DNA from: Candidatus Zipacnadia bacterium
GTDB lineage: Bacteria; Armatimonadota; Zipacnadia; Zipacnadales; UBA5352
Assembly: GCA_029820945.1 (NCBI GenBank)
Contig: JALGUJ010000003.1
Span: forward strand, 6,873-70,872
Length of the DNA: 64,000 nucleotides
Direction: 5' to 3'
In this document: one piece after another, positions 10,747 to 56,055 of the stretch
Numbering within the stretch: position 1 is the first letter of the stretch
How the letters are laid out: every line of letters begins with the position of its first letter
Made by a program: the position numbers and the translations under genes
Notes under the pieces: model-generated
Database searches by the model: none
What the model was told of the DNA's origin: nothing
The model's input: only the letters and a program-made list of their open reading frames with translations

Positions 10747-10750
10747 GGTC

Positions 10751-11806
10751 TCAGCCGAGCACCTCTCGGAGGGCATCGCAGACGCGCCTGGTGTCCTCGC
10801 GGGTGACCTGCACGTGCGTGACGAGGCGGATGGCGACGTCGCTGCGGCAGATTGCGAGGATGTCGTAATCGGCAAGGGCGCGACAGAGCGACGGGGCGTC
10901 GAGGTCCTCGCGGCGCACCTCCAGGTTGACCATGTTCGTCTGGACGGTCTCGAGATCGACGTCGATGCCGGGCAGCTCGGCGAGAGTCTCGCCGATCGTC
11001 CTGGCGTTCTCGTGGTCCTCGTGCAGGCGGCCGGGCGCGGTCTCCAGAGCCACGCGGGCGGCCGCTGCCATGACGCCCGCCTGGCGCATGGCGCCGCCCA
11101 CCACGTTGCGCACGTGGCGCGCCCGCTCGATGAACTCCCGGCTGCCACAGATCATCGACCCCACCGGTGCGCCGAGGCTCTTGGAGAAGCAGAACTGCAC
11201 GCTGTCCACGGGCGTCACGAGCTCGGCCGGCTCGACGCCCCGCGCCACCGCCGCGTTGAAGATGCGGGCGCCGTCGAGGTGCACCGGAATGCCATGGCCG
11301 TGGGCGACATCACACAGCGCGCGGGTCTGCTCGACGGTGAGCGCCACGCCGCCGGCCATGTTGTGCGTGTTCTCCAGCTCCAGAAGGCCGGTCGCGCCCC
11401 TGTGCACGTTGGAGCCGTCGGAGATGGCCGCCTCGACGGCCTCCGGGCTCATGACGCCGCGGTTGCCGGGGATGGTGCGCGGCAGCAGCCCGCAGATGGC
11501 CGAGATGCCGCCACCCTCCCACAGGTATACGTGGGCCAGGCGTTCGAGGATGACCTCCTGCCCCGGCTCGGTCAGGCTCTTGATGGCGACGAGGTTGCCC
11601 ATGGTGCCGGAGACGACGAATAGGCCGGCCTCCTTGCCCAGGAGCTCGGCGCACATCTGCTCCAGACGACTGACTGTGGGGTCCTCACCGGCCTTGTCGT
11701 CGCCGACCTCAGCCTCGGCCATGGCGCGGCGCATCTCGTCGGTTGGGAGGGTCTTGGTGTCGCTGCGCAGGTCTATGGTATTGGTGCCAGGGATGGGCAT
11801 TTGCAC
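10751..11806 (-). CDS. ltaE: Low-specificity L-threonine aldolase (PLP)
   Basis: [42 protein letters not shown] (PLP lysine), GGAMRQAG. The start may be ATG at 11800. Confidence 0.93.
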
Positions 11807-11829
11807 CGGGCCTCCTGGTGGCCGTCAAC

Positions 11830-11863
11830 AGAGAAAACGGCCGCGGACGGTGCTCCGCGGCCG
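11830..11863 (-). terminator. Intrinsic terminator-like hairpin
   Basis: Minus strand: CGGCCGCGGA-gcaccg-TCCGCGGCCG (perfect 10-bp stem) followed by TTTTCTCT. Confidence 0.7.
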
Positions 11864-11883
11864 CACATTCGGCTCTCGCAGAA

Positions 11884-12528
11884 CTATATCTTGCGCGGTC
11901 GCAGCCGCGCTCGTCTGACCAGGAACGCGACGAAGCGGTAGGTCGGATAGCCGACGAGACAGACGAGGAAGACGATGGCGTCCCAGCGCACGGCCTTCGC
12001 CGTGGCCTTTACCTCGTATTCCTCCTTATCCGCGGTGAAGCTCCACACGGCGTGGCGCCCGTCCACACTCGCGGCGGGGCTGGTGCTCTCTATCGTGCCC
12101 GGCATGGTCAGGCGGTACTCGAACTGAGTCACCGGTGCGGCGGCCCGCTCCCTCTCGTTGCCGAGGAAGTCAACCTTGATGGTCTCCTGCCAAGTGTAGT
12201 AAGTGACGAATGAGAGGGGTCGCCGGACGATGTCGTATGCGACCGCCTGCACGTCATGGCCCGCCGCGAGGTTGTGCTTCTGGGTGCTCCGGTAGACCTT
12301 CACGCTGTCGGTGGACATCTGCACGCCGTCGCCGTGGTAGCCGCGGGTCATTTCCCCCGCCCACTTGACCAGCTCCTCACGCAGCGAGCTGTCACCGGAG
12401 ACCTGCACGCGGCGAACCCCCGAGAGGTCCCCGTACATCCTCGTGGTCACCACGACCTGGTCGGAGTTCAGCAGCAGGACGAAGGGAATCGTGATCAGCA
12501 GTGACGTTCGCGGTGCTCTCGTCACCAT
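11884..12528 (-). CDS. Hypothetical membrane-anchored protein (LppM-like beta domain possible)
   Basis: ATG at 12528 after GGAGGAGG; N-terminal hydrophobic stretch, FEYRLTMPGTIESTS, C-terminal TM helix with basic tail. Confidence 0.6.
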   Translation of the reverse strand: MVTRAPRTSLLITIPFVLLLNSDQVVVTTRMYGDLSGVRRVQVSGDSSLREELVKWAGEMTRGYHGDGVQMSTDSVKVYRSTQKHNLAAGHDVQAVAYDIVRRPLSFVTYYTWQETIKVDFLGNERERAAAPVTQFEYRLTMPGTIESTSPAASVDGRHAVWSFTADKEEYEVKATAKAVRWDAIVFLVCLVGYPTYRFVAFLVRRARLRPRKI

Positions 12529-12544
12529 CCGTCCTCCTCCACGC

Positions 12545-13228
12545 TCAGAAGGTGACCTGCTCATCGTCCTCTTCGTCCGCGAACAGCTCCGGGTCGTCCG
12601 CCAGATCCGCTGTCTCCTCCTCCGCCGGCGGCCCCGCGTCCTCCGGCTCCTCGAACTCGATGTCGTCCACGAATGCAGTGGCGTCGGGCCACTGCTCCTG
12701 GGCGTCCGGAGCCTCGGAGTCTTGGTCGGCGAGCTCGGCGGCGGCCTCCTCGGCGGTCAACTCCTCCGCCGCGAGCGCTTCCTCCTCGGCAAGGGCCTCC
12801 TCATCGAGCAGCGCCTCCGCCGCCACGAGCTCCGCCACCGCGACCTCCTCCGCCGCGGCCTCCTCGGCGGCGCGCGCGCGCTTGGCGCGCACCTCCAGCA
12901 GCCAGGCGGTCACCATGCCGAGCAGGAAGAGCACCACGAAGACAACGGCCCTGGGCGCATCGAGGTAGAGGCCGAAGAAGTTGATGCGCAACGGCGCCCA
13001 ATTGCCGATGATAAACATGACCAGGACGAGCGCCAGCAGAGTCCATCCGAAGGTGCGCCAGTCCGGTGCCGGCAGCCGGATCCTCTCCACCGCAGCGCGG
13101 CATCGCTCGATCGTCCTGGCCACGAGTCCCGGCTTGCGCGGCCCGGCCGTGCGTGCCCCTTCCTCGCGTTCGCCCGCCTCATGAGCGGCCGCCATCCGGT
13201 CCTTGAGCCCCGCATCCTCGTTCGCCAC
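12545..13228 (-). CDS. LapA/DUF1049-like membrane protein with long acidic Glu/Ala tail
   Basis: Two TM segments with FIIGNWAPLRINFFGLYLDAP...LFLLG; low-complexity tail AEEAAAEE...EEDDEQVTF; GTG at 13228 after GGAGAGAGGAG. Confidence 0.7.
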   Translation of the reverse strand: MANEDAGLKDRMAAAHEAGEREEGARTAGPRKPGLVARTIERCRAAVERIRLPAPDWRTFGWTLLALVLVMFIIGNWAPLRINFFGLYLDAPRAVVFVVLFLLGMVTAWLLEVRAKRARAAEEAAAEEVAVAELVAAEALLDEEALAEEEALAAEELTAEEAAAELADQDSEAPDAQEQWPDATAFVDDIEFEEPEDAGPPAEEETADLADDPELFADEEDDEQVTF

Positions 13229-40732: not shown

Positions 40733-40884
40733 CCACGACCCGCATCGCCAGCCACCTCGCCCACCTCGCCGCGCCGCCGGCCGACTGATCCGCCACCGCC
40801 GTCGTCTCTGCGGAGGCGGCCCCGCTCCGGGCGACGAAGTCCCACGTGAACCGGGCTATCCGCAGTGCCGACGGAGTGATCGAC

Positions 40885-43245
40885 GTGAATGGCCTGAGAT
40901 CGGCTGCGATGCTCAGCCTCGTGCTGCTCGCGGCAAGCGCCGCGCTCGCCGTCACCGTGGTCGCCCCCGGAGAGGAGCCGCTGCCCGTCGTGCTCGCATC
41001 CGACGCCATCCCCGCCGAGCAGACCGCGGCGGAGGAGCTGGCGTCCTACCTCGGACGCATCGCGGGCCGCGAGTTCGAGGTCATCGTTGAGGGAGAGGTC
41101 GGCGACGGAGCCGGCATCTTCGTCGGCCCGACCGCGCGCGCGGCCGAGCTGGGCATCGACCACCGTGCGCTCGGGCCGGAGGAGTGGGCGGTCCGGACTG
41201 CCGGCGACGACCTGATCGTGGCCGGCGGGCGGCCGCGCGGCACGCTCTACGCCGCCTACCACCTGCTCGAGGATGTGCTGGGCGTGCATTGGTGGACGCC
41301 CTGGGACGAGAGCGTTCCGAGCATCCCGACGATCGACCTCGGCGAGCTCGATCTGCGCGGAGAGCCCGTGCTGCAGTACCGCGACATCTACCGCGTCTAC
41401 GGCTATGACGAGGGCCGGTTCGCCGCGCACAACCGGCTGAACCGCATGGGCGACCCGCCGATACACGCGCGGTACGGCGGGGGCATGGACTACGGACCGC
41501 CCTACCACGTGCACACGTTCTATCTCTACTTCCCGCCCGACCAGTACTTCGAGGATCACCCCGATTGGTACTCGCTCATCGACGGCAAGCGCAACGCGGA
41601 GCGCAAGCAGCTCTGCCTGACCAACCAGGAGCTGCGCGAGGCGTTCCTGGGGAAGCTCCGGGCCTTCATCGAGGAGAGCCGCAAGCAGGCGGCCGAGCGC
41701 GGCGGCCCGCCCCCTCGCGTGTTCTCGGTCTCGCAGAACGACTGGCGGGGCGCCTGCCAGTGCGAGAGCTGCCAGGCCATCGTTGAGCGCGAGGGCTCCG
41801 AGGCCGGACCGCTGCTGGACTTCGTGAACTTCCTCGCGGACGGGATCGCGGAGGACTACCCCGACGTCTACCTGAGCACGCTGGCGTACCAGTACACCCA
41901 GCAGCCGCCGACGAGCATCCGCCCGCGCGAGAACGTCATCGTGCGCCTGTGCGACACCACGAGCACATTCACGCGCGCCATCACCGACCCCGAGAACGAG
42001 CAGTTTCGCGACATTCTGCTCTCGTGGGCGGAGATTGCGGACAACCTGCGCATCTGGGACTACGCGGTGACCTACGCCCGGCCCCGCGGACTGCCGATGC
42101 CGAGCGTGCAGACCTACGGGCCGGACTTCCGCTTCTACGCCGAGCACAACGTCGAGGGCGTCTTCACGGAGCTGGAGTTCCCGGTCAGGGCGGACATGCG
42201 CGACCTGAAGGTCTGGATGATGTGCAAGCTCCTCGAGGACCCGTACGCCGACTACGATGGGCTGCTGGCGACCTTCACCGAGGGCTTCTACGGCCCCGCC
42301 GGGCCGATGGTCCGGGAGTATCTGGCCGCGCTGCAGGCCGCCTCCGAGGCCCGTCCGAGTCACATCAGCATGGGCGCGTCGCTGCCGTCGTACGGCACCT
42401 ACCTGACGCTCGAATTCGTGCGGCACGCGCACGCGATCTTCGACCGCGCCGAGGCGGCGGTGGCGGACGAGGAGACGCTCCTGCAGCGCGTTCGCCACGC
42501 CAGGATGCCGCTCGACCGCGCGACGGTGATGCTGGCGCGGCCGCTCTCGCGCGAATGGGTGCAGCGGGGGAACGACCCGGCGGAGCTGCCCTTCGAGCGC
42601 CAGGCCATCGGCGAACGCTACAGCGCAACGTGGCTGGCGGAGGTGGAGCGGCGGCTGCCCGAGTCACAGCGCGCGCAGTCGCGGGCCGAGCTGGAGGAGG
42701 AGTTGACGCGATACACGGCGCTGCCCGAGTTCGTACCGCTGCCGGAGAAGTTCGCCGACGTGCCGCCCGAGCGCGTCTTCGACTTCACCGCGGATCAGTC
42801 GCGGAACTGGAAGGACATCGTGAAGGTGGTGCGCGACGAGGAGGCGGAGAGCGGGATCACCAACCGGCTTCAGTTCCCCACGGCCATCGACACCGAGAAG
42901 CATCCGGTCGAGCGCTACGAGCTGCCCATGCCCTGGGGCCTGTACGACGTGCGCAACAAGAAGGGGCGAGCCAGCGCCCAGATCAGGGCCGAGGACGTCC
43001 CCGGGCCGGGCTATCACTGGTACCGGATGGGCAGCTTCGAGATCGGGCCCTCCTACTACCTGTACTTCTTCTGGAGCTGGATCATCCAGGTAGACATCGA
43101 CTCCGCGTGGGACGCCGAAAGGCCCGACCGGGAGTTCGAGATCTGGGCGCGGATCAAGTTCGAGGGGCCGGCCTTCCCGCACGGTGACGAGGCCGACGCG
43201 AACGCCATCTGCGTGGAGCGCGTGGTGCTGGTGGGGCAGGAGTAA
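40885..43245 (+). CDS. Secreted DUF4838-domain protein (putative glycoside hydrolase)
   Basis: GTG at 40885 after GGAG; signal peptide; AAEELASYL, RGTLYAAY...LGVHWWTP, HTF, HPDWYSL, QLCLTN, SVSQND, TLAYQYT, IWDY. Confidence 0.8.
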   Translation: MNGLRSAAMLSLVLLAASAALAVTVVAPGEEPLPVVLASDAIPAEQTAAEELASYLGRIAGREFEVIVEGEVGDGAGIFVGPTARAAELGIDHRALGPEEWAVRTAGDDLIVAGGRPRGTLYAAYHLLEDVLGVHWWTPWDESVPSIPTIDLGELDLRGEPVLQYRDIYRVYGYDEGRFAAHNRLNRMGDPPIHARYGGGMDYGPPYHVHTFYLYFPPDQYFEDHPDWYSLIDGKRNAERKQLCLTNQELREAFLGKLRAFIEESRKQAAERGGPPPRVFSVSQNDWRGACQCESCQAIVEREGSEAGPLLDFVNFLADGIAEDYPDVYLSTLAYQYTQQPPTSIRPRENVIVRLCDTTSTFTRAITDPENEQFRDILLSWAEIADNLRIWDYAVTYARPRGLPMPSVQTYGPDFRFYAEHNVEGVFTELEFPVRADMRDLKVWMMCKLLEDPYADYDGLLATFTEGFYGPAGPMVREYLAALQAASEARPSHISMGASLPSYGTYLTLEFVRHAHAIFDRAEAAVADEETLLQRVRHARMPLDRATVMLARPLSREWVQRGNDPAELPFERQAIGERYSATWLAEVERRLPESQRAQSRAELEEELTRYTALPEFVPLPEKFADVPPERVFDFTADQSRNWKDIVKVVRDEEAESGITNRLQFPTAIDTEKHPVERYELPMPWGLYDVRNKKGRASAQIRAEDVPGPGYHWYRMGSFEIGPSYYLYFFWSWIIQVDIDSAWDAERPDREFEIWARIKFEGPAFPHGDEADANAICVERVVLVGQE

Positions 43246-44512: not shown

Positions 44513-46783
44513 TTACTGCTGCAGGGCCTGCTTCATGCTCACGATCGCCGCGGCCAGCCCGTCGCGCGCCTCATCTACGGCACGCACGTCCAGCGTGTAG
44601 GGCTCATCGTTCGCGCCACGCACCGACGGCCAGCGCTCGACCAGCGACAGGGCGGCGTCAAGGGCCTCGCGCCCGACCGCAGCGGCGTCGGCCCTTCCTG
44701 CGTCCTCGAGTTGCCGCGCGAGGTCATCTGCCAGGGCCATGTACTCGTAGTCCTCCAGGCCCTCGCGGAACAGCTCCCAGCGGATCGAGTCGATGGGCGT
44801 GGGCTCGTCGGGCGCGCGCGGCGGATAGAGCAGCACGCCGGAGCTCCCGACGCCCGCCGTCCACGGGTCTTCGACCTCGCCGCGCCAGCAGACCGTGCCC
44901 CACCACGAGTAGGTGCCGTCCACCGCGTACTTGCGCAGCAGCCAGGGCCAGAGGCGGACGCGGATGGGCCGGTGGTCGGGGTAGTTCACCGCGTTGTTGT
45001 AGACCAGGATCCGGTCGCCGTCCGCCCTCGCAGCCTCGATCTTCGGCACGGCCCGGTCCCAGGAGTCGGTGTGCAGGATCCAGACGTGCGTGACGTCCAG
45101 CAGCTCCGCGGCGGGGGCGCTGACGGTCTGCGCGATGCGCAGCTCCGGCTCGACGTTCAGGAGCAGCTCGCTCAGCGCCCGGATGCCGTTGCGGGTCGGC
45201 TCGTGGTTAAGCCTGGGCTCGTCGATGAACCGCACGGTCGGCTCTTGGAAGAGATCGGCGTCCCTGAGCGCGGTGCAGAGCTTCGTGATCCAGTCGCGGA
45301 AGGGCCGCTCGAACTGCGGGTTGAGCTGCGTCAGCGCGTCGTTGGCGAAGATGGGGATGCCCTGCCACTGCGCGTCGCGGGGCATGATGTGCTCGCCGCC
45401 ATGGCCAATCCAGAGGGCCGGGAGGTCGAAGCGGCGCGCGCCCAGCTCATCGCGCATGAAGGCGAGGTGCTCGAGGTACTCCTCGAGGTCCACCGTCACG
45501 CTGTCGCCCTGCACTTGCGGCTTCGGGACCACGCCGGGCGCGCAGCGGCTGCGATGATCGTAGAAGTCCTGGTAGTAGCGCGCCAATACCATGTCCGGGT
45601 CGCCGCTCTCGCGCTCGAGCACGATCCCGAAGCGGAAGCCGGAGCGCACGTCGATGGTGGGCCGCTCGGGGATGAGGAAGTCATGTACGTGCAGGCGCAG
45701 CGGCACGGCGCAGACCTCATCGCCGGCCGCCGTCAGCGCGACCTGGCCCTCGTAGTCGCCCGGCTCCTGGTCGCGCGGCACGTGGAGTGTGAACCAGAAG
45801 CCCTGGTTGTGGCCGGCGGGGATGTCAACGGGAAGACGCTCCGTCAGCGGGTCGGGGTTAAGGCCCTTGTGACCGTAGGGGCCCATCGGCCGCTGGATGT
45901 CCACCGTCTCGATCAGGCGGCAGTGCAGGTGCTCGCCCGACAGCGTCGCGGGACCTGCCAGATCTCCCCAGGTGAAGGCGACATTGCGCGCCCCACCGGT
46001 CGGCGTAACCGCGACCTGGAAGGACTCGTACTCGCCGAGCGCTGCGGACAGCTCGATGGCCTGCAGCGGCTCGCCCGTGGGCAGGTCGCGGTCCGGCAGG
46101 ATCTTGCGGTTCTCGCTGTCGGTCCACAGGACGCCGCCCGGGAACTGCCGCAGCACGCGCGCCGTGTCCTCGATCTCCCGCGGCTTGCGGCCCACGACGA
46201 TGACGTCATCGATCCACGCGCGGCAGCCGGGCACCTCAGTCACCAGCTTGATCAGCAGCGAGACGGCCTGCTCGCCCTCAGGGGCGATGAAGTCGCCCAC
46301 GTCGGCGCGCACCCAGCCCCGCTCGTCGGCGCCGCCCACCCACTCCCCCGCCACGAACTCGCCGCGCCGGTCATGCGGCACGGTGACCACCGGCCGATAG
46401 AGCAGGCTCTCCATCTCTCGCTCGCCGACCGGATAGCGGACGAAGCAGGTGATGCGGCTGGGCCCGCCCTCGGCGCGGTAGTGCAGGCTGAGGCTGTAGA
46501 CGCCACCGGGCTCTACGGGGACCACCGTGCTCCAACCGCCGTTGAGGCCCTCGAGGCCGAGGCTCCGGGAGCCGCTGTGGGCCTGGTCATCGGCCCACCA
46601 GCCGCGCGAGTCCTGCCACGAGTAGAAGCCCCACTCGGCCGGCTCGCCGGCCGCGCCCTCCTCGAAGCTCGGGTTCGGCGCGAGGCTCTCGACCGCGGCT
46701 TCCTGCGCCCCCGCCCGGCAGCCGGCCAGCAGCGCCAGGCCGAGGGCGGCGATGGCGGCACACGCGATAGCGGCCCTGGACAT
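44513..46783 (-). CDS. Lipoprotein with DUF4091 (GH123-like) C-terminal region and N-terminal CBM-like domain
   Basis: Lipobox LLAGC; APNPSFEEG; GEYESFQV, PDPL, NQGFW, FIDEP, LLYPP, SIRWELFREGLEDYEY. Confidence 0.8.
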   Translation of the reverse strand: MSRAAIACAAIAALGLALLAGCRAGAQEAAVESLAPNPSFEEGAAGEPAEWGFYSWQDSRGWWADDQAHSGSRSLGLEGLNGGWSTVVPVEPGGVYSLSLHYRAEGGPSRITCFVRYPVGEREMESLLYRPVVTVPHDRRGEFVAGEWVGGADERGWVRADVGDFIAPEGEQAVSLLIKLVTEVPGCRAWIDDVIVVGRKPREIEDTARVLRQFPGGVLWTDSENRKILPDRDLPTGEPLQAIELSAALGEYESFQVAVTPTGGARNVAFTWGDLAGPATLSGEHLHCRLIETVDIQRPMGPYGHKGLNPDPLTERLPVDIPAGHNQGFWFTLHVPRDQEPGDYEGQVALTAAGDEVCAVPLRLHVHDFLIPERPTIDVRSGFRFGIVLERESGDPDMVLARYYQDFYDHRSRCAPGVVPKPQVQGDSVTVDLEEYLEHLAFMRDELGARRFDLPALWIGHGGEHIMPRDAQWQGIPIFANDALTQLNPQFERPFRDWITKLCTALRDADLFQEPTVRFIDEPRLNHEPTRNGIRALSELLLNVEPELRIAQTVSAPAAELLDVTHVWILHTDSWDRAVPKIEAARADGDRILVYNNAVNYPDHRPIRVRLWPWLLRKYAVDGTYSWWGTVCWRGEVEDPWTAGVGSSGVLLYPPRAPDEPTPIDSIRWELFREGLEDYEYMALADDLARQLEDAGRADAAAVGREALDAALSLVERWPSVRGANDEPYTLDVRAVDEARDGLAAAIVSMKQALQQ

Positions 46784-46872
46784 GCCTCTCTCACGCTCCT
46801 CCACGTCTCGCGAGGCGGACGGCGCATGGGCCGCGGGTGGGTCGATCTCGCCGGCCTGTACGCGCGACCGGC

Positions 46873-47948: not shown

Positions 47949-48575
47949 CTACTCGCTGGGCTGCGAGGGAACCCAGGCAATGGCGTTATCCACCTGCTGC
48001 TCCTTGGCCCACTTCACGTGTCCGTCCACGAAGCCCCAGATGACGCCATCGTTATGCCGTTGCGGCCAGTTGTTGCCGGTGAAGCTGTTGTCGTCCGGCG
48101 CGCCGCAGATGTCGTTGCCGATGTCGTTGACGTACCAGTCACCATCGGTACCGGTCTTCCCATTGGCGCCGATCGCCTCGGGCCGCACGTCACCGCACAG
48201 CACCTTGACAGAGGGATCCCAGAAGTTCCCGAGGCCTTGGCCGGAGGCCAGGAAGCTCATGCCGTATCCGGGCCCCTTGTCCTTGCGGTCCGGGCAATAC
48301 AGGATCTGGCGATTACGCGTGTATGGGAAGATCGCGTTGTACCACTGCGAATCGGGCTCGCCGGCCGCAGCCTGCCCCGCCGGGAGGATCTCGTCGAAAT
48401 CCTGAGCGTACATGTTCATGGCGAGACAGAGCTGCTTGACGTTGGAGATGCAGGCGGCCTGTCTTCCCTTGCCCCTCGCTCGGGAGAATACGGGGAACAG
48501 GATGGAGGCCAGGATTGAGATGATCGCTATGACGACCAGAAGCTCGATGAGAGTAAAACCTGTGCGCTTGTGCAT
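47949..48575 (-). CDS. Prepilin-type N-terminal cleavage/methylation protein, DUF1559 family with H-X9-DG motif
   Basis: GFTLIELLVVIAIISILASILFPVF, ACISNVKQL, YAQDFDE, RHNDGVIWGFVDGHVKW. Confidence 0.9.
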   Translation of the reverse strand: MHKRTGFTLIELLVVIAIISILASILFPVFSRARGKGRQAACISNVKQLCLAMNMYAQDFDEILPAGQAAAGEPDSQWYNAIFPYTRNRQILYCPDRKDKGPGYGMSFLASGQGLGNFWDPSVKVLCGDVRPEAIGANGKTGTDGDWYVNDIGNDICGAPDDNSFTGNNWPQRHNDGVIWGFVDGHVKWAKEQQVDNAIAWVPSQPSE

Positions 48576-48734
48576 TGAGGACGCCTCCTTCGGCTTCACG
48601 CCCCCGAACGGGACGCGATGGTGCTGCCACCTGGAATAACAAACACAGTGCGCGCCAACAAGTTTCGCCGCGGCGCAGCAAATGCCTCCGTACGGGCCCG
48701 CTCTCGCCGCTTCGGGCGATTCGTCACGCGGCCA

Positions 48735-51449
48735 TCAGCCGGCGGCGGGCGCCGACTCGACCACGAGCGTGACATCGCAGGGATAGCGTCCCGCGCGCGA
48801 GCTGTATACCGCGAGCCCGCCCCTGTCCGCCCCCGAATCCTCAGACGCGATACGCACCGTCACGATTCCATCCGCGGCGGCCGCCGCCGCTCTCTCGGCC
48901 GAGAGGTCCACCCGCACAAGCTGCCCGTATCGCCCCAGCAGCCCGTGCATGTGTGACAGCGCGCCGCGGGAGTCGGCCGGCTGGTTCGGCAACGCGAGTA
49001 CCGCGGCCTCCGCACGGCCGATCGCTATCCGCGCCCTGGACGGCCAGCGTTCCGCTTCGGTCTGCGGCGCCCCGGCGCGCGCGCTGGACAGCTCCACGAG
49101 CAGGTGCAGGGCCGCGATGCGCCTCGGATCGAGGTCCTCGGGCAGATCGAAGCTGTACTCCACCGAGCCGTCGCCCAGTCCCGCCAGGAGGTGGACGTCG
49201 CCCTCGACCTCGCCGCGCTCGATGTCACCCTCGAAGGCGGCGTCGCAGTCGCCCGCAGTCTTGCGCAGCACGACGGCGCCATCCTGGGACGCCGCATGTT
49301 CGCCGACGACCTCAAAGAAGCAGAAGTTCATCGCCGCCGGCCTGCCCCGCCCGTCGTCAAGCACGGCCTCGACGCGGGCGAGGCCGGGCTCGTCGGGCAG
49401 CGTCAGCTCGATCGCGGCGGAATCGCCGCTAACGGCCGCCGGTCTGGTCCTGCGCACCAGGGCGCGCGCGCGGCCGAGACGGCCAGTGAAGGTGGCGCTC
49501 CAGCGCACGCGCCGGGCAAGCTCGGCCGCACGCGCGGACGGCCGCAGAAAGACCGGGACCGTCACGCGGTCGCCGGGCGCAGCCGTGCGCGCGGGCGGGC
49601 AGTCGAAGCCCACGAACAGCTCCCCGAGGATCAGCGCCGGATGGTAGCCGAACTGCTTCGGGGAGCGATCGTAGTTGTAGAGCCCGTTGTGCTCCCACTC
49701 GATGTCCGTCAGCTCGGTGTAGACGTAGCCGCAGATCTCCTCATGCTTGCGCAGCTCGTTGGTGAGGAAGAGCAGGCACCAGGAGACGTCGAGGTCGCCC
49801 ATGCGCGCTGAGATGCCCCCGTACTCGCTGTTGAGCAGCGGCTGGCCGCCCTGGCGGCTGCCGCCGGCGAAGTTGAACTGCGAGCCCGGATGCGTCTGCT
49901 CCACGACCTCCTCGATGTGCTCCCGCGCCTGGTCGTAGTCGTTGAGGTAGAAGTGCCAGCTATTGATGTCGGTGACGATGTGGTCGCGCAGGCAGGCCGA
50001 GTTGTCCTCCACAAGCCGCGTCGAGTCCATCTCGCCGGTGGCCTCATAGCACTCGCGCACCCACTGCTGTCGCTCCGGCATTTGAGCGTACTCGCGACCA
50101 CCCAGGCCCCAGGTCTCGTTGAAGAGGCACCAGGCGATGATGCTCGGGTGGTTGAAGTCGCGCGTCATGGTCCCGCGGAGGTTACGCTCCCAGCGGTCCC
50201 TCGCCAGCTCCGAGTAGCCGTCATAGCCGAAGTTGGGCATATCGCACATCAGCAGAATGCCCACACGGTCCGCCCAATAAAGGTAGCGGGGGTCGGGCGT
50301 CTTGACGTGCAGCCGGAGGAAGTTGAGCCCGGCCTCGCGGGCCAGGACCAGGTCGCGCCGGATGGCGGCATTGCTGGGATGCGTGTAGACCCCCTGCGGA
50401 TGGAAGCTCTGATCCAGCGCCCCGCGCAGATAGATTGGCTCCCCATTCAAGCGGATGTATGCCGGCCCATCCTCGCCCAGAGGGCCGACATCGACGTCGC
50501 GCATGCCGAACTGCGTGTGCACCTCGTCGATAGCCCGGCCGCCCTGCAGGAGCCGCACGCGCAGCCGGTACATGTGAGGGCTTTCTGGTGCCCAGGGGAT
50601 GGGGGCGCGGATGTGCGCGCTCAGTCGCACCTGGCCGTGATCGTCCAGCGGCACGGGGCCAAGCTCGGCCACGGTCAGGCCCGTCGAGGTGCGCACGGCG
50701 GCGGCGACGGCCAGGTCCGCGGCGCCCTCGGGCACGTGAGTTCTGACTGTAACGGTCGCAAGCCCCCCGGCCAGGTGCGGCTGCACCTGAATGGCATCGA
50801 TGTGCGCGGCCGCCCGCGGCTCAAGCCACACCGTCTGCCAGATGCCACTCGTGGGCGTATACCAGCTCGGCACCTGCTTGCCCAGCGGCTTGCGGCTCTC
50901 GTCCTGGGGGTCGTGCACGCGGATGACGAGGGTGTTCTCACCCCCAACCAGCGCATCCGTGACATCGAAGCTCACGGGCAGGTAGCCGCTCTCCGCCTCC
51001 CCGACCGGGACGCCGTTGACCCAGGCGCGCAGCTCCCAGTCCGCGGCGCCGACGTTCAGGAAGACGCGGTGGCCCTGCCACCGGGCGGGCACGATGAACG
51101 AGCGCCGGTACCAGCCAACGGTCTGCCGCGGCGCCTCGCGGTAGTTCTCGACGGTGACCGAGGTCGGGTCCAGGTAGGCCTCGCGGCTGAACCAGCAGCC
51201 GTTGCCCGCCTGTTCCCCGGTCCCCCACGCCAGGTGGCTCTCCCACGGGAAAGGCACCACGATGGTGCGCGGGAAGCTCTCTGCGCCGCTCTCGTGCAGG
51301 CCCCGGGCGGGCCCGCGGTCATCGGGATCAAAGCTGAACTGCCACGGTCCGTTAAGGTTCAGCCAGTCGATGCCGGGCCGCAGGCCACGGTGGAAGTCGG
51401 GCCGCGGGTGTTCAGGACGTGGCACAGCATGGCTGCCGGGACGGCTCAT
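48735..51449 (-). CDS. Glycoside hydrolase family 2 (beta-galactosidase/glucuronidase-like), no signal peptide
   Basis: PRPEHPRPDF, WLNLNGPWQF, SGIWQTVWLE, LRGALDQ, GLNFLRLHVK, NHPSIIAWCLFNETWG, LNSEYGG, YTELTDIEWEHNG. Confidence 0.9.
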   Translation of the reverse strand: MSRPGSHAVPRPEHPRPDFHRGLRPGIDWLNLNGPWQFSFDPDDRGPARGLHESGAESFPRTIVVPFPWESHLAWGTGEQAGNGCWFSREAYLDPTSVTVENYREAPRQTVGWYRRSFIVPARWQGHRVFLNVGAADWELRAWVNGVPVGEAESGYLPVSFDVTDALVGGENTLVIRVHDPQDESRKPLGKQVPSWYTPTSGIWQTVWLEPRAAAHIDAIQVQPHLAGGLATVTVRTHVPEGAADLAVAAAVRTSTGLTVAELGPVPLDDHGQVRLSAHIRAPIPWAPESPHMYRLRVRLLQGGRAIDEVHTQFGMRDVDVGPLGEDGPAYIRLNGEPIYLRGALDQSFHPQGVYTHPSNAAIRRDLVLAREAGLNFLRLHVKTPDPRYLYWADRVGILLMCDMPNFGYDGYSELARDRWERNLRGTMTRDFNHPSIIAWCLFNETWGLGGREYAQMPERQQWVRECYEATGEMDSTRLVEDNSACLRDHIVTDINSWHFYLNDYDQAREHIEEVVEQTHPGSQFNFAGGSRQGGQPLLNSEYGGISARMGDLDVSWCLLFLTNELRKHEEICGYVYTELTDIEWEHNGLYNYDRSPKQFGYHPALILGELFVGFDCPPARTAAPGDRVTVPVFLRPSARAAELARRVRWSATFTGRLGRARALVRRTRPAAVSGDSAAIELTLPDEPGLARVEAVLDDGRGRPAAMNFCFFEVVGEHAASQDGAVVLRKTAGDCDAAFEGDIERGEVEGDVHLLAGLGDGSVEYSFDLPEDLDPRRIAALHLLVELSSARAGAPQTEAERWPSRARIAIGRAEAAVLALPNQPADSRGALSHMHGLLGRYGQLVRVDLSAERAAAAAADGIVTVRIASEDSGADRGGLAVYSSRAGRYPCDVTLVVESAPAAG

Positions 51450-51630
51450 GATGTCACTCCCGCATCGTCGTCCGGGACCCTAACGACCCGCCGAGTGTTA
51501 GTAACGCCACTGACCCGCACCGGGGCGCGGGGCGTGAGCGCGATAGACGTTCCCCCATGCGCTCTCCGGAACCTCCTCTGGTGAAAGGCGAGGGAGAATC
51601 GCATTCCCGAGGAGGAGTCGGGGGCGCGTA

Positions 51631-51639
51631 TGATAAAAT
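51631..51639 (+). promoter_or_regulatory. Extended -10 promoter element for the wHTH/KaiC-like operon
   Basis: TGaTAAAAT in an AT-rich patch about 65 nt upstream of 51703. Confidence 0.5.
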
Positions 51640-51702
51640 GAATGTACACTGGCTCCCGATCGGTCTTCGCGGGGGTGCTCGTCGCTCCAGAGCCGGGCGC
51701 GG

Positions 51703-52101
51703 ATGGTTGCCATGGACGATCGCGTGAGACAGTTCATCGAGGAGATCGCGCAGGACCTGGTGGGTCTGGACGTCGCTCTGTTCTACCAGGCTAATCCGCG
51801 GGCGTTCGACACGGCCTCGGGGATAGCGCTTCGTACCCACCGCTCCCTGAAGGACGTCGAGCCGGCTCTGCAGCGGATGAGCGAGCGGGGCTACCTTGAG
51901 GTGCTCTCCCGCGGCGACGGCCGCTACCAGGTCTTCGCGCTATCACCGGCGCCTGAGGTCTGGCGCACGCTCTGCCACGTCAGCGAGGCCTACCACGAGG
52001 ATCCCGAGGCCCGCAAGGAGATCATCCTGATGCTGGTGCAGCGGCGGCTTCAGCGCCGCACGGCGGGGCAGAATACGGGGGGGAGTGGACCCGATGGCTG
52101 A
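51703..52101 (+). CDS. Small winged-helix-like protein coupled to the KaiC-like gene
   Basis: FYQANPRAFDTASGIALRTHRSLKDVEPALQRMSERGYLE then a beta hairpin (wHTH pattern); its stop overlaps ATG 52094 of the next gene. Confidence 0.7.
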   Translation: MVAMDDRVRQFIEEIAQDLVGLDVALFYQANPRAFDTASGIALRTHRSLKDVEPALQRMSERGYLEVLSRGDGRYQVFALSPAPEVWRTLCHVSEAYHEDPEARKEIILMLVQRRLQRRTAGQNTGGSGPDG

Positions 52102-54721
52102 GCTGGTTGGCACCGGCATCGGCGGCCTGGACACCATCCTGGGAGGGGGGCTGCGTCAGGGCTCCTGCACGCTGCTGGAGGGCATCCCCGGCACCGGGAA
52201 GACCACCATCGGCCTCTGCTTCCTCTACCACGGCGCCGCGAACGACGGCGATCCCGGCATCGCCATCACCTTCGAGCAGTTCCCCCAGCAGATGGTGGAC
52301 GATGCCGCCCAGTTCGGCTGGGACATCCCCGCCCTCGAGCGCCAGGGGCTCATGCGCATCATGTGCACCTCGCCCGATGTCTTCCTCGACCAGCTCAGCG
52401 AGGTGGGCGGGGTGGTCGATCGGCTGGTCTCCGAGATGGGCGCGAGGCGGGTGCTGATCGACAGCGCCTCGCACCTGGCCCAGATCAGCGAGGATCCGAG
52501 CAAGCTACGCGCGCTCTTCTACAGCATGATCAACGGCCTCAAGCGCGCCGGCCTGACCACGATCGTCACCAAGGAGCTCGAGTCCCCGGAGGTGGCGCAG
52601 ATCCCGTTCGAGGAGTACCTCTGCGACACCGTCGTGCGGCTCGATAATGTGATGGTGGGGGGCTTCCGGCGCCGCCGCTACATCGAGGTCGTGAAGTCGC
52701 GCGGGCAGGCCCACCGGCTCGGGCGGCACGGCTTCGAGCTCGGCCCTGAGGGCCCGAAGGTCTACCCCCGCTACCACGCTGAGGCCAGCATGGCCGCCGA
52801 AGCCTGCCCGGTGCGGAAGCTGACCACCGGCGTGGAGGGCCTCGACCGCATGCTCGCCGGGGGATTGCTGGTGGGCAGCTCGACGCTGGTGGCGGGGAGC
52901 GCCGGCGTGGGCAAGACCACGCTGGGCCTGCAGTTCATCTGCGAGGGGGCGGCCCACGGCGAGCCGGGCGTCTATGTGACCTTCGAGGAGTCGCCCGCGA
53001 AGCTCGCCTGCCAGGCCGCGGGCTTCGGGCTCGACCTCGAAGGGTTACGCGAGAGCGGCATGGTGACCGTAGTCCACGAGCTGCCGACCACGGTCCGGCT
53101 TGAGAAGCTGCTGCTGCAGTTGGCCGATGAGATCGACCGCATCGGCGCGACGCGGCTGGTCTTCGACAGCCTGACCGATCTCGACATGGCCTTCGCCGAT
53201 GAGGACAATGTGCGCGAGGCGGTCTACAACCTGGTGAGCATGCTCGCCGCCCGGTGCGTCACCAGCATCGTGGTCAGCGAGGTGCCCGAGCTGTTCGGCC
53301 AAACCTACGTCACCGCCGAGCACCTCTCCATCATCGTGGACGGCATTATCCTGATGAAGTACCTGGAACTCGAGAGCGAGATCCAGCGCGCCGTCTCCGT
53401 GCTGAAAATGCGCGGCTCCGAGCACGACACCGGCATCTGGCGCTATGTCATCGAGAGCCAAGGGATTGACGTGCTGAGCCGGTTCGAAGGCGCGGAGGGG
53501 CTGATGGTGGGGGCCGCGCGCACCACCAGCATCGCGCTGTCGGTGCGCAGCTTTAGCGAGTTCGACGAGCAGCTCAACGCCGAGCTGCTGGAGCGCTTCT
53601 CGCAGATTCACCCCAACGTCTCCCCCGTCTCCTTGAACCTGCCGTACAACCCCGACGAAGCGCTGGAGACGATCCGCACGGCGCTGCGGGCGGAGACCAC
53701 CCAGCTCTCAGTGGCACCGATGTGCCTGTACTGGACCCCGGAGGTCGTGGCGACGGGCAGGCTGCGCGAACTCGATGATCTCCTCTCCGCCGAGGAGATC
53801 GACCAGCACATGGCCGAGGTCGTCGAGCCGGGGACCGGCGATGGTCACCTCTATGGCATTCCCGCCATCGCGCTCTGCGGCGCCCTGCTGTATCGGCGCG
53901 ACCTGCTGGACAAGCACGGCTTCCAGGCGGCGCCGATCACCTGGGAGGAGCTCATCGAGCAGGCGAGCAAGGTGCTCGCCGATGAGGGTCGCGACGACCT
54001 CATCGGCTTCCAGTTCCCGGCCTACATGTATGAGGGTCTGAGCACCTCCTTCCTGACGAACCTGTGGAGCAACGGCGGCTCGGTCGTGGGCGAGGGCGGG
54101 CGATGCGCGCTCGACAGCGAGGCCGCACTGGAGGCCCTCCGCTTCATCCGCTCGCTCATACACGAGCACGGCATCACGCCGCAGACTGTGACCGGCTACA
54201 ACGGCGGGCTCGAGCCGCAGCAGGACTTCATCGAGGGCCGCACGCTCTTCCTCTATATGCTCCCCAGCGTGCTGCAGGAGGTCAACCGCCCTGACAGCCC
54301 GCTGCTGGGCAGGGCCGGGCTGGCCGGCCCGCCGCATGGGCCGCGCGGCGACCGTGGCTACAGCTTCCTGGGCGGCTGGCACTTCGGCATCCCCGTCAAC
54401 GCCAAGGCCCCCGTGGCAGCGGGGCAGTTCATCCAGTTCATGACCAGCAGCGAGGTGCAGAAGGAGCGGGCCGTGCGCGGGGGCCCGCTGCCCACCATCA
54501 GCAACCTCTACCGCGACCCGGAGGTCCTGGCCTTCAACCCCCACTATCCGATCGTCTACGAGCTAATCCGCAGCGCGCGCAAGCGCCACGAGATCCCCAA
54601 CTACCTGCAGGTCTCTCGCCTTATGCAGCAGCACCTGCATCCGGTGCTGACCGGCGACGCGGAGCCCGAGGCCGCTTTGGACGAGCTGTACGGCAAGGTC
54701 CGCGGGCTTATCGAGCAGTAG
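52094..54721 (+). CDS. Double-domain KaiC-like (RecA-fold) ATPase fused to a C-terminal family-1 sugar solute-binding domain
   Basis: CI: TGIGGLD, GIPGTGKT, ITFEQ, RVLIDS, VVKSRG. CII: TGVEGLD, GSAGVGKT, VTFEE, RLVFDS, HLSIIVD, VLKMRGSEHD. SBP from about 53530: LLYRRDLL, PITWEEL, YEGL, FLGGW, FIQFMTS. Confidence 0.9.
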   Translation: MAELVGTGIGGLDTILGGGLRQGSCTLLEGIPGTGKTTIGLCFLYHGAANDGDPGIAITFEQFPQQMVDDAAQFGWDIPALERQGLMRIMCTSPDVFLDQLSEVGGVVDRLVSEMGARRVLIDSASHLAQISEDPSKLRALFYSMINGLKRAGLTTIVTKELESPEVAQIPFEEYLCDTVVRLDNVMVGGFRRRRYIEVVKSRGQAHRLGRHGFELGPEGPKVYPRYHAEASMAAEACPVRKLTTGVEGLDRMLAGGLLVGSSTLVAGSAGVGKTTLGLQFICEGAAHGEPGVYVTFEESPAKLACQAAGFGLDLEGLRESGMVTVVHELPTTVRLEKLLLQLADEIDRIGATRLVFDSLTDLDMAFADEDNVREAVYNLVSMLAARCVTSIVVSEVPELFGQTYVTAEHLSIIVDGIILMKYLELESEIQRAVSVLKMRGSEHDTGIWRYVIESQGIDVLSRFEGAEGLMVGAARTTSIALSVRSFSEFDEQLNAELLERFSQIHPNVSPVSLNLPYNPDEALETIRTALRAETTQLSVAPMCLYWTPEVVATGRLRELDDLLSAEEIDQHMAEVVEPGTGDGHLYGIPAIALCGALLYRRDLLDKHGFQAAPITWEELIEQASKVLADEGRDDLIGFQFPAYMYEGLSTSFLTNLWSNGGSVVGEGGRCALDSEAALEALRFIRSLIHEHGITPQTVTGYNGGLEPQQDFIEGRTLFLYMLPSVLQEVNRPDSPLLGRAGLAGPPHGPRGDRGYSFLGGWHFGIPVNAKAPVAAGQFIQFMTSSEVQKERAVRGGPLPTISNLYRDPEVLAFNPHYPIVYELIRSARKRHEIPNYLQVSRLMQQHLHPVLTGDAEPEAALDELYGKVRGLIEQ

Positions 54722-54972
54722 CCTCCCCCGGGGGACATTCCAGCGATGTCCGCATGCCCACGGCGAGACCCTCGTCAGCCCTACGGCCGGCGCCGGGCGA
54801 CTGCCGCGGCATTGCTCGCACTCTGCGTCGTCTCTCCGGCGTACTGCCAGAGCAGCTACCTCTGGCACGAGATCGAGGACCTCATCACCGCGCGGGATTG
54901 GCTGACCTTCACCCGAGTCACCAAGGCGGGCTTGCCGGATCGCCTCAAGCGGCGTTGCGCGGCAGCGGACGT

Positions 54973-56055
54973 CTACTTGATCTTCACGGCCCGGCCCGAA
55001 TCGGCGGACTTGTACATGGCGTCCAGGATCTTCATGATGCGCAGGCCGTCGGTCGCGGGCGAGATGGGCTCCTCGCCCTCGATCAGGCAGTCCACGAAGT
55101 GCTGCACCGCCGTGTGCCGGCCCATGGCCTCATCGGGCTCAAGCTTGACGACGCGATCGACGGCCTCGTCCTGCTCCTGGGTGTAGATCTCGAGGGTGTC
55201 GATGGCCGTGTCGTCGATGCCGTCCACGGCGAAGACGCGCTCGAGGCTGGCGCCCGCCTCGGTGCCCATGAGCGTGGAGTAGACCCACTCACGCTTGATG
55301 CGCGATGCCCATGAGGCCTCGAGCAGGATCGTCTGGCCGCCGGCGAACTTGAGCATGCCCACCGCCATGTCCTCGACGTCGAAGGTGCCCTTCGGGTCGG
55401 GGGTGCCCCACGGCCCCAGGCCCTCCATCTGCGGCCCGAAGACCGAGTAGGTGGAGGCCAGGCACAGCTCCGGCTCGGGGTTGCCCATCAGCCACATGGT
55501 CAGGTCGAGCATGTGCACGGCCAGGTCGATCAGCGGTCCGCCGCCGGCGACCTCCTCGCTGGTGAACCAGCTTCCCCAGCCGGGGATGCCGTTGCGGCGG
55601 ATCCAGCCGCAGCGGGCGAAGTAGATGTCGCCGAATGTCCCCGCGTCCACGTGCCCCTTGAGCATCTTCGCCTCGGGGCGGAAGCGGTTGTTGAACTGGA
55701 TCATCAGCGTCAGGCCCGCCTTCTCGGCGGCGTCCACCATTCGCTGCCCCTCCCTGGCGGTGCGCGCCAGGGGCTTCTCACAGAGCACGTTCTTGCCCGC
55801 CTTGAGGCAGCCGATGGTGAGCGGCGCATGGAACTTGTTCGGCACGCAGACGCTGACGCAGTCCAGGTCGAGCTCCAGCATGTCCTCGTAGTCGGTGAAG
55901 AGTTCCTCGATTCCGTACTCCTCGCCGGTCTCCGCGAGCAGCTCCTCGTTGAGGTCGCAGAGCGCAACGACCTCGGCGTCTTCGTGGGCCTGGTAGCCCT
56001 CGATGTGATAGGTGCCGATTCCGGCGCCGATGACTCCGGCCTTGATCTTCGCCAC
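54973..56055 (-). CDS. Gfo/Idh/MocA family oxidoreductase
   Basis: GVIGAG, CVPNKFH, VLCEKP, GGGPLIDLAVHMLD, DVED. Confidence 0.93.
   Translation of the reverse strand: MAKIKAGVIGAGIGTYHIEGYQAHEDAEVVALCDLNEELLAETGEEYGIEELFTDYEDMLELDLDCVSVCVPNKFHAPLTIGCLKAGKNVLCEKPLARTAREGQRMVDAAEKAGLTLMIQFNNRFRPEAKMLKGHVDAGTFGDIYFARCGWIRRNGIPGWGSWFTSEEVAGGGPLIDLAVHMLDLTMWLMGNPEPELCLASTYSVFGPQMEGLGPWGTPDPKGTFDVEDMAVGMLKFAGGQTILLEASWASRIKREWVYSTLMGTEAGASLERVFAVDGIDDTAIDTLEIYTQEQDEAVDRVVKLEPDEAMGRHTAVQHFVDCLIEGEEPISPATDGLRIMKILDAMYKSADSGRAVKIK

Follow-up and report, generated by a model that had tools for sequence, protein, structure and literature searches.

Two overlapping genes of a Candidatus Zipacnadia bacterium (phylum Armatimonadota) encode a small winged helix-turn-helix (wHTH) protein and a fusion of a double-domain KaiC ATPase to a family-1 solute-binding protein (SBP) domain. 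They lie in the 64,000-nucleotide stretch analyzed here, which we call the window (contig JALGUJ010000003.1, positions 6,873 to 70,872; all coordinates below are those of the window unless a locus is named). The wHTH + KaiC-SBP pair is a conserved two-gene module of one order of Armatimonadota that, to judge from its sequence, serves signalling in the cytoplasm, and it is not a circadian clock. An earlier model-made inspection of the letters, hereafter the sequence-only reading, had described a candidate sugar-gated KaiC switch. We favor a ligand-gated KaiC switch with transcriptional output, a reading to which we give an even chance of being right. The parts of the module are as follows.

51712..52101, + strand: MarR-like winged-helix protein, 129 amino acids (aa; 132 aa if read from 51703), assigned from its fold model and Foldseek
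52094..54721, + strand: KaiC-SBP fusion protein, 875 aa + stop, the first 8 nt of whose gene overlap the end of the upstream gene
52094..52798, + strand: CI-like domain, residues 1-235, from alignment to solved KaiC and column counts
52799..53479, + strand: CII-like domain, residues 236-462, from alignment to solved KaiC and column counts
53480..53530, + strand: A-loop-equivalent linker, residues 463-479, RFEGAEGLMVGAARTTS, which leads from the final strand of CII into the first strand of the SBP
53531..54718, + strand: complete two-lobe family-1 SBP domain, residues 480-875, TMBP/MalE3-related, from PDB alignments and Pfam

The fusion is encoded by a single, continuous open reading frame (ORF; 52085..54721, +), with a G+C content at third codon positions (GC3) of 0.92. 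Its start is taken as the ATG at 52094, because the database protein P0001 has 875 aa and the family consensus opens at that Met. Pfam places KaiC (PF06745) on the protein in two stretches (E = 7.1e-104; 346.7 bits against a cut-off of 26.6), followed by overlapping matches to SBP_bac_1 (residues 495-793, E = 6.9e-21, profile positions 8-307 of 307) and SBP_bac_8 (residues 520-814, E = 6.4e-22). The SBP part scores 76 and 79.1 bits for PF01547 and PF13416, against cut-offs of 26 and 27. Together with the structure-sequence alignments described below, these matches confirm what the sequence-only reading had claimed, namely two KaiC domains and a complete family-1 SBP in one ORF. No membrane-like segment or signal peptide was found across the 875 aa (the 19-residue hydropathy maximum, 1.65, lies within the CII core), and the SBP domain, which begins at residue 480, carries no export signal or lipoprotein anchor. 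Because there is no hydrophobic segment, the whole fusion, SBP part included, should be cytoplasmic on sequence grounds, and here the hydropathy scan agrees with the earlier reading. An AlphaFold monomer model of the fusion has a predicted local distance difference test (pLDDT) score of 87.8 and a predicted TM score (pTM) of 0.60.

Residues 5-474 align with solved KaiC from Thermosynechococcus (7dy1, E = 5.1e-76) and Synechococcus (1u9i, E = 1.9e-72), and the fusion also matches KaiC of Rhodobacter sphaeroides (8dba, E = 7.2e-60). KaiC features were placed by alignment to solved KaiC and then counted by column over 58 members of the fusion family. Synechococcus KaiC residue numbers were checked against the alignment offsets.

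CI Walker A, K36/T37 (KaiC K52/T53): 58 of 58
CI catalytic Glu 1, E61 (KaiC E77): 58 of 58
CI catalytic Glu 2 position, Q62 (KaiC E78): Gln in 45, Glu in 13 of 58
CI Walker B, D123 (KaiC D145): 58 of 58
CI K-x-R finger, K201/R203 (KaiC K224/R226): 58 of 58
CII Walker A, K274/T275 (KaiC K294/T295): 58 of 58
CII catalytic Glu, E298/E299 (KaiC E318/E319): 53 of 58 and 58 of 58
CII Walker B, D358 (KaiC D378): 58 of 58
CII K-x-R finger, K438/R440 (KaiC K457/R459): 58 of 58
Phosphosite 1, S412 (KaiC S431), codon 53327-53329: 58 of 58
Phosphosite 2 position, I413 (KaiC T432): Ile in 48, Val in 9, Met in 1 of 58
T407 (KaiC T426): Thr in 33, Ser in 23 of 58

The Walker A, Walker B and K-x-R motifs that had been recorded in both KaiC domains of the window protein are present in every one of the 58 members. 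The enzyme looks active in both KaiC rings, and it could be phosphorylated on one serine, S412, which we assume from homology. The ordered two-site phosphorylation cycle of clock KaiC cannot run in the fusion, because the T432 equivalent is Ile, Val or Met in 58/58. We infer that the protein forms a KaiC-like hexamer, since the trans-acting arginine fingers are retained.

At the junction between ATPase and SBP, residues 463-477, RFEGAEGLMVGAART (R463-T477, 53480-53524), align with the A-loop stretch of Thermosynechococcus KaiC, and R463, F464, E465, G466, G469 and G473 are invariant (58/58). No segment of the fusion is better conserved than the linker (463-479), whose mean pairwise identity among the 58 members is 66%, against 55% for CI, 56% for CII and 57% for the SBP. 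In the model, the last CII strand spans 457-463 and the first SBP strand 480-482, which puts the SBP 16 residues beyond the last CII strand; pLDDT is below 50 at 471-473, in the linker. The SBP domain starts 6 residues past the last aligned A-loop residue and thus occupies the position of the KaiA-binding tail. The proposal of an A-loop match at 53480-53524 with the SBP directly after it is therefore borne out by both the KaiC alignment and the model strands.

The SBP domain aligns end to end with MalE3 of Thermotoga maritima (6dtq; E = 1e-52, query 25-399 of 403, chain 21-390 of 400) and with the trehalose/maltose-binding protein (TMBP) of Thermococcus litoralis (1eu8; E = 1.4e-48). The next solved relatives are the Thermus 6j9w group and SmoF. 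The motifs YEGL (646-649) and GGW (760-762) have identical counterparts at the aligned positions of 6dtq and 1eu8, much as the sequence-only reading had recognized from YEGL and LGGW, and an R-x-P motif is also shared. All three motifs are invariant or almost so in the 58 members; W547, E647, W762 and R831 are invariant, and G761 is also kept. Counted along the alignment, Cys544 corresponds to Asp69 of 1eu8, and it is Cys in 57/58. In the excerpts of PMC12096829 (2025) that bear on these proteins, 6dtq, 1eu8 and 6j9w bind alpha-linked disaccharides, 6dtq and 1eu8 being exported or anchored components of ABC importers, and the pocket residues of Athe_2310 are D69, F119, W243, G278/G279 and R351. 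From those excerpts, we infer that Asp69 of 1eu8 is the counterpart of D69 of Athe_2310, a pocket residue. The SBP fold is kept and part of the pocket appears to be kept, but the ligand cannot be named. The fusion resembles TMBP (1eu8) and TmMBP3 (6dtq) in having the whole SBP domain with YEGL, GGW and R-x-P; in contrast to them, its SBP is predicted to be intracellular, has no permease genes nearby and carries Cys for Asp69.

The upstream gene ends with the TGA at 52099-52101, 8 nt into the fusion gene, which has a GGGGGAG stretch just 5' of its ATG at 52094. Because the genes overlap, they are probably translationally coupled. A 132-aa wHTH gene overlapping the start of the fusion had been reported; the overlap and a winged-helix fold of MarR type are upheld, but the protein is likelier to have 129 aa, as the conserved start 'MD.R' favors the ATG at 51712 over that at 51703. 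This gene, whose conservation the sequence-only reading had left to be checked, lies directly upstream of the fusion in all 20 loci in which the 5' flank is present, in none of eight plain-KaiC loci, and also in G113, the genome of an SBP-less form described below.

No Pfam or NCBIfam model matches the wHTH protein at default thresholds. Weak MarR_2 matches occur in 10/21 members and HVO_A0114 matches in 9/21 (best MarR_2 E = 0.0073), and the window protein stays below the MarR_2 cut-off (13.9 bits against 27). Its model (pLDDT 91.9) has the topology H-H-b-H-H-wing-H-H, with a winged helix between one N-terminal and two C-terminal helices. The Foldseek PDB matches listed (~40) are almost all MarR-family regulators (E ~1e-3, query-normalized TM score (TMq) 0.41-0.55). 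The protein is like MarR regulators such as PefR (7dvs) and ST1710 (3gfj) in topology, N-terminal helix, winged HTH and C-terminal helices; it differs from them in its MarR_2 score below the cut-off and in TM scores of only 0.41-0.55. A profile search returned 215 homologues, and among the 120 listed there is no Pfam domain, those that are named are called 'hypothetical protein' bar one, and those with an organism given are nearly always from Armatimonadota. Look-alikes in the ESM Atlas, which serve as a lead only, are small hypothetical proteins and MarR-family clusters. Complex prediction for wHTH residues 1-122 with the full fusion scored 0.02 and 0.01 against a mark of 0.32, and we use this result neither for nor against binding. 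A Photorhabdus lectin identity was tried and rejected as spurious: it was the source of the sole PDB-profile matches below E = 1e-3, and every separate stretch had E > 1. The artefact comes from the wing, 'DGRY.V(F/Y)AL...W' (a 'DGR.EVFA...W' hairpin), which mimics the blade repeat of the seven-bladed Photorhabdus lectin (E to 6.7e-7).

The fusion is conserved and specific to its lineage. Searched against 5.8 billion proteins, the SBP part gave 78 matches, most of them 868-889 aa long, and 78/78 carry PF06745 together with SBP domains; databases name them 'extracellular solute-binding protein [Armatimonadota]' or 'circadian clock protein KaiC'. Our genome search covered 301 genomes of the phylum Armatimonadota, 28 of them from the window's order, with 47 weaker matches outside the listing. 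A fusion, full or cut by a contig end, is present in 21/28 sampled genomes of the order, and by family in 11/11 genomes of f1 (which includes the window's own), 2/2 of f2, 6/6 of f4, 1/1 of f5 and 1/8 of f3. Among the matches listed, none in the 273 phylum genomes outside the order reached the SBP part; they covered the KaiC part only, at ~30-45% identity. The window's genome is a draft (203 contigs, 90.7% complete, 7.36% contamination), and the frame is free of stops at full or near-full length in 19 places in other genomes, as well as in the window itself. Two DNA sequencing runs contain small shares of the window (0.11 and 0.08), with no RNA run listed, and contigs matched it only in pieces of 34-307 bases, of which none covers 53419-53739; the reads therefore weigh neither way on the junction or on expression. 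Thus, homologues with the same fusion, on whose existence the sequence-only reading had staked its proposal, are found both in the protein databases and across the order. In one genome (locus L050; G235:C49, 12726 bases), the 3' end of the fusion (residues 697-876) lies at 11-550 and the 5' part (residues 4-689) at 10664-12721, and the contig behaves as if circularly permuted or end-overlapping.

One member of the order, G113, has the pair without the SBP (locus L049, G113:C21). Its wHTH gene (10447-10827, -) precedes a KaiC gene (9005-10447, -) whose product is 54% identical, stops 6 residues past the 'RFEG.EG' linker motif and has EE in CI where the window fusion has EQ. No SBP remnant was found downstream of the G113 KaiC gene. 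A split SBP elsewhere in that genome was considered and rejected, the best SBP-like match there being 24% identical. Because G113 has the SBP-less form, we regard the wHTH-KaiC pair as the core and the SBP as a module that was added or lost; such gain or loss fits the behavior of an input domain.

Neither KaiA nor KaiB (PF07688, PF07689) has a Pfam match in the window's genome, which extends to the entire genome the earlier statement that no kaiA or kaiB lies nearby. KaiB scores above the cut-off in 5/41 genomes of the order. Two of them, G131 (C243:1124-2833) and G140 (C24:8417-10145), have a plain second KaiC, ~31-32% identical to the KaiC part of the fusion, followed by KaiB; these are ordinary kaiC-kaiB pairs that stand apart from the fusion locus. 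Compared with cyanobacterial KaiC, the fusion shares the tandem RecA-like domains, Walker A and B motifs, catalytic Glu, K-x-R, equivalents of T426 and S431, and an A-loop-like segment. It differs in having Ile, Val or Met for T432, mostly Gln for E78 and a 396-residue SBP as its tail, in a genome without detected KaiA or KaiB and with scores below the KaiC equivalog cut-offs. A second comparison, and a precedent for the switch, is offered by Rhodobacter KaiC, which in the excerpted account of PMC10076222 (Pitsawong et al. 2023) carries a C-terminal coiled-coil extension by the A loop, a KaiA-independent "primitive regulatory moiety"; the extension is a helix of ~50 residues that packs into a 12-helix bundle between a pair of hexamers, and the protein works with KaiB. 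As far as that account goes, both proteins are KaiA-less KaiC with an extra C-terminal module beside the A loop, whereas the module of the fusion is a globular domain with a ligand-binding fold, in a genome where KaiB was not found.

Related single-chain proteins, uncharacterized as far as our searches show, occur in other phyla. When the SBP part was compared with 1.84 billion cluster representatives, 8435 matched at E <=0.001; the fusion family accounts for two representatives at 50% clustering, and the next matches are <=37% identical. A Pfam scan covered 20 of the longer SBP matches. Four (P0222, P0228, P0306 and P0346; ~730-756 aa) consist of KaiC, SBP and an AraC helix-turn-helix (HTH), and P0201 has KaiC and SBP with an end resembling a cut AraC domain. 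P0242 (AAA_22 + SBP + AraC) and P0289 (SBP + AraC) have the same length and layout as the KaiC-SBP-AraC proteins, and P0265 has SBP + AraC. The other scanned proteins are SBP-permease fusions, tandem SBPs, a caspase-SBP and an LRR-SBP. The KaiC domain of the KaiC-SBP-AraC proteins is nearer to CII (for P0346, CII at 31.6% identity and E = 6e-38 against CI at E = 2.4e-14), and P0346 keeps the junction motif HFEGKEGILTG. In a tree of 76 SBP domains, the six Armatimonadota rows and eight KaiC- or AraC-linked rows fall on one side of a branch with SH-aLRT support of 99, in what is a quick, unrooted maximum likelihood tree from a short search (LG+G4) with composition heterogeneity flagged. A pattern scan of genomes found full-length KaiC-SBP-AraC genes in Candidatus Firestonebacteria (two loci, L051 and L053) and in two other bacteria (L052, L054), as well as partial genes in UBP4 and Sumerlaeales records. 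These proteins resemble the window pair in the junction of a CII-like ATPase with an SBP, in the grouping of that SBP and in being cytoplasmic by architecture; they differ in having one KaiC domain and in carrying an AraC-type HTH fused C-terminally, not a separate MarR-like gene. Because the fused relatives run ATPase, sensor, HTH in one chain, they support a transcriptional output of the two-gene form.

Upstream, the module faces a glycosidase gene across an intergenic region.

48735..51449, - strand: GH2-family glycosidase, 904 aa, divergent, with Pfam Glyco_hydro_2_N, Glyco_hydro_2 and Glyco_hydro_2_C
51450..51711, no strand: intergenic region between GH2 and wHTH, 262 bp, presumed control region, with one inverted repeat and a GGAGGA-like motif

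That the operon diverges from a cytoplasmic GH2 gene, as first described, is consistent with its strand and with a direct reading of the GH2 N-terminus, which found no hydrophobic leader. The best solved relative of the GH2 protein is beta-D-galactofuranosidase 9j6n (E = 4.6e-72), with beta-glucuronidases next. The solved relatives cover only residues ~21-598, and the last third of the protein (~300 aa, 48735-49650) has no Pfam match. GH2 occurs in 12/17 loci, directly divergent in 10 (7/7 of f1, 3/6 of f4) and ~4 kb off in two, and the directly divergent arrangement spans loci down to ~50% protein identity. In L046, two genes lie in the 4-kb gap between GH2 and wHTH, one for an ArsR-type HTH protein and one for an ABC ATPase. 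In L047 (4723-8379, +; genome G067), a 1218-aa gene combining Schlafen/AlbA_2 with nSTAND NTPase5, defence-like in content, lies between GH2 and wHTH. The intergenic region of the window contains an imperfect 10-nt inverted repeat (51572-51581 / 51606-51615). Within the window's family, alignment of seven such regions is poor, with 48% column identity. Their sole common block is a GGAGGA(T/A)T-like motif (51610-51625 in the window, alignment columns 265-275), ~90-100 nt 5' of the wHTH start. Neither a sigma-70-like promoter between GH2 and wHTH nor a terminator anywhere in 51400-55000 was picked up by a consensus scan of the window.

Further out, the window encodes GH123-like, DUF1559/N-methyl pilin-like and GFO/IDH/MocA oxidoreductase proteins, an Oxidored_FMN flavoprotein, a metallo-beta-lactamase-fold protein and an S9 peptidase-like protein. 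Among the neighbors scanned in 39458-62480, ~10 kb around the fusion, there is no ABC permease or transporter ATPase, in line with the earlier statement that no ABC permease gene is nearby. The neighbors at 44513-46804 (-), 40846-43245 (+) and 47949-48599 (-) include a weakly GH123-like protein, a DUF4838 protein and a DUF1559/N-terminal-methylation pilin-like protein. The genes for a 318-aa protein, the DUF1559 protein and GH2 form a block that at least five of the six other loci of the window's family retain. A ~476-aa protein with no Pfam family and an N-terminus like 'GFASADITPA' lies near the module in four loci (L045:12434-13864, L050:1730-3160, L043:15669-16943 and L046:514-3340), in tandem in L046.

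The ligand-gated switch that we favor would work as follows. The fusion would form a hexamer whose CII face carries six SBP domains. Each SBP would close on a small molecule, most probably some glycoside, and the A-loop-like linker would pass the change on to the KaiC part, altering its nucleotide exchange, its ATPase activity and/or S412 autophosphorylation. The MarR-like protein would read the state of the fusion and control the shared promoter region, hence GH2 and the operon itself. Cytoplasmic regulators that couple a sugar to transcription are familiar from MalT of Escherichia coli, which also uses ATP, and from LacI/LysR. LacI and LysR use periplasmic-binding-protein-like folds of other classes as intracellular sensors with no need for ATP. 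MalT is a STAND ATPase and none of the three has a KaiC domain, so the analogy to the fusion is functional only. A bolder generalization is that a CII-like KaiC domain, A-loop and SBP form the core of an unrecognized class of ATP-dependent sensory regulator found in several candidate phyla, in which SBP closure would replace KaiA and the hexamer would be an AND gate of ATP/ADP state and intracellular sugar that sets a DNA-binding output. We consider this class, with its specific KaiA-mimic mechanism, less likely than not.

Several observations weigh against the ligand-gated switch. On the ATPase side, the T432 equivalent is never Ser or Thr in the 58 members, phosphorylation of S412 is assumed purely from homology, and the protein does not reach the cut-offs of the NCBIfam KaiC equivalogs NF006799 and TIGR02655 (scores of 344.8 for a cut-off of 408 and 268.7 for one of 546.25, residues 8-496). 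The relative placement of the domains is not fixed by the model, because pTM is 0.60 and confidence at the junction is low. The sensor raises its own difficulties: maltose or trehalose specificity cannot be assumed, because Asp69 of 1eu8 is replaced by Cys544, and the pocket may bind something else, or nothing. The closest solved relative of GH2, being a beta-D-galactofuranosidase, does not match an alpha-glucoside ligand, and GH2 was not found in 5/17 loci within the stretch fetched. No conserved palindromic operator is seen in the seven aligned intergenic regions. Beside the KaiC-SBP-AraC loci there is no clear carbohydrate theme either: 6/10 neighbors scanned have no Pfam family, and one carries CBM_4_9. 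Furthermore, according to the excerpts of PMC10076222, Rhodobacter KaiC deprived of its coiled coil hardly differed in phosphorylation or nucleotide exchange. Because that removal barely changed phosphorylation, an extension at the A-loop site need not act by pulling the A loop, and such 'pulling' is the weakest step of the proposed mechanism.

Many archaeal KaiC-like ATPases are proposed to work purely via ATP binding and hydrolysis. The fusion might likewise be an ATP-driven remodeller or timer without phosphorylation or A-loop gating, in which the SBP recruits a ligand or partner and the serine is structural. Such an enzyme would suit the hydrophobic T432 equivalent (58/58), the Gln at the E78 equivalent (45/58), the equivalog scores below their cut-offs and the excerpted Rhodobacter result, in which loss of the extension left phosphorylation nearly unchanged. 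However, S412 never varies, 56/58 members have Thr or Ser at the T407 position, E298/E299 are retained, and a linker that is the most conserved segment of the protein is hard to explain as a mere tether; we think this explanation unlikely, while giving it appreciable weight. A different doubt concerns the SBP, which could be a degenerate pseudo-receptor that now offers a surface for oligomerization or docking, for example, of the MarR-like protein. The exchange of Asp69 of 1eu8 for Cys points that way, to the extent that a pocket role for this Asp follows from the excerpts of PMC12096829, as do the nearest free SBPs being <=37% identical and the lack of a transporter context. Against it, both lobes are complete, W547, Y646/E647, W762 and R831 are invariant, the SBP is as conserved as the ATPase, and in other phyla the same SBP clade sits between ATPase and AraC HTH, the usual place of a ligand sensor. 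Loss of ligand binding therefore seems to us a rather improbable account of the domain.

A double-domain KaiC with all its ATPase motifs and an S431 equivalent also invites the idea of a true timekeeper, an hourglass or oscillator entrained by sugar, and the excerpts of PMC10076222 describe KaiBC hourglass systems outside cyanobacteria. This is very improbable: KaiA and KaiB were not found in the window's genome, KaiB scores above its cut-off in only 5/41 genomes of the order and in G131 and G140 stands beside plain KaiC, and the T432 equivalent is absent. Similarly slim is the chance that the protein is an anti-phage defence component built on a KaiC- or STAND-like ATPase. PADLOC gives a weak match to mad8 (E = 1.4e-7, with no separate stretch passing), and in L047 the Schlafen/AlbA_2 + nSTAND NTPase gene lies between GH2 and wHTH. 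The PADLOC match is nevertheless limited to the P-loop region, the wHTH protein and P0346 have none, the chromosomal carbohydrate context (GH2, GH123-like, GFO/IDH/MocA) is stable, and the insertion is seen in 1/17 loci. Finally, an assembly chimera or mis-called ORF might have joined KaiC to a secreted SBP. Apart from the draft status of the genome (203 contigs, 7.36% contamination) nothing supports such a join, and its chance is negligible: other genomes have the same frame at 19 places, 78 protein clusters of varied source have it too, the ORF as a whole has a GC3 of 0.92, and the SBP part has no leader peptide. The chimera is refuted because the fusion is conserved across genomes.

The proposed switch is made of two known elements, an ATPase of the KaiC family and the sensor fold of an SBP; what is uncharacterized is their combination, the A-loop junction and the use of a family-1 SBP inside the cell. 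The sequence-only reading did not recall this architecture as characterized, and likewise we found no published description of a KaiC-SBP fusion in the literature searched, which did not extend to supplements or to Makarova et al. 2017. The KaiC homologues surveyed in the excerpts of PMC5520375 range from 101 to 741 aa, with bacterial ones of ~500 aa, and SBPs are treated as extracytosolic in those of the SBP signalling review PMC8050422. The fusion is misdescribed by both of its database annotations, 'extracellular solute-binding protein' and 'circadian clock protein KaiC'. The paper of Makarova and colleagues on KaiC-like ATPases in archaea (mBio) may list related architectures.

KaiC is the best understood protein timer, and the function of most of its non-cyanobacterial homologues is unknown. 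With an SBP at the A-loop in place of the KaiA-binding tail, the fusion offers a testable case of a KaiC ring wired to a chemical input, for which the SBP-less form of G113 and the single-chain KaiC-SBP-AraC relatives are ready natural comparisons. If the ligand-gated switch is true, the module would also present an unusual sight, a family-1 'extracellular' solute-binding domain at work inside the cell.

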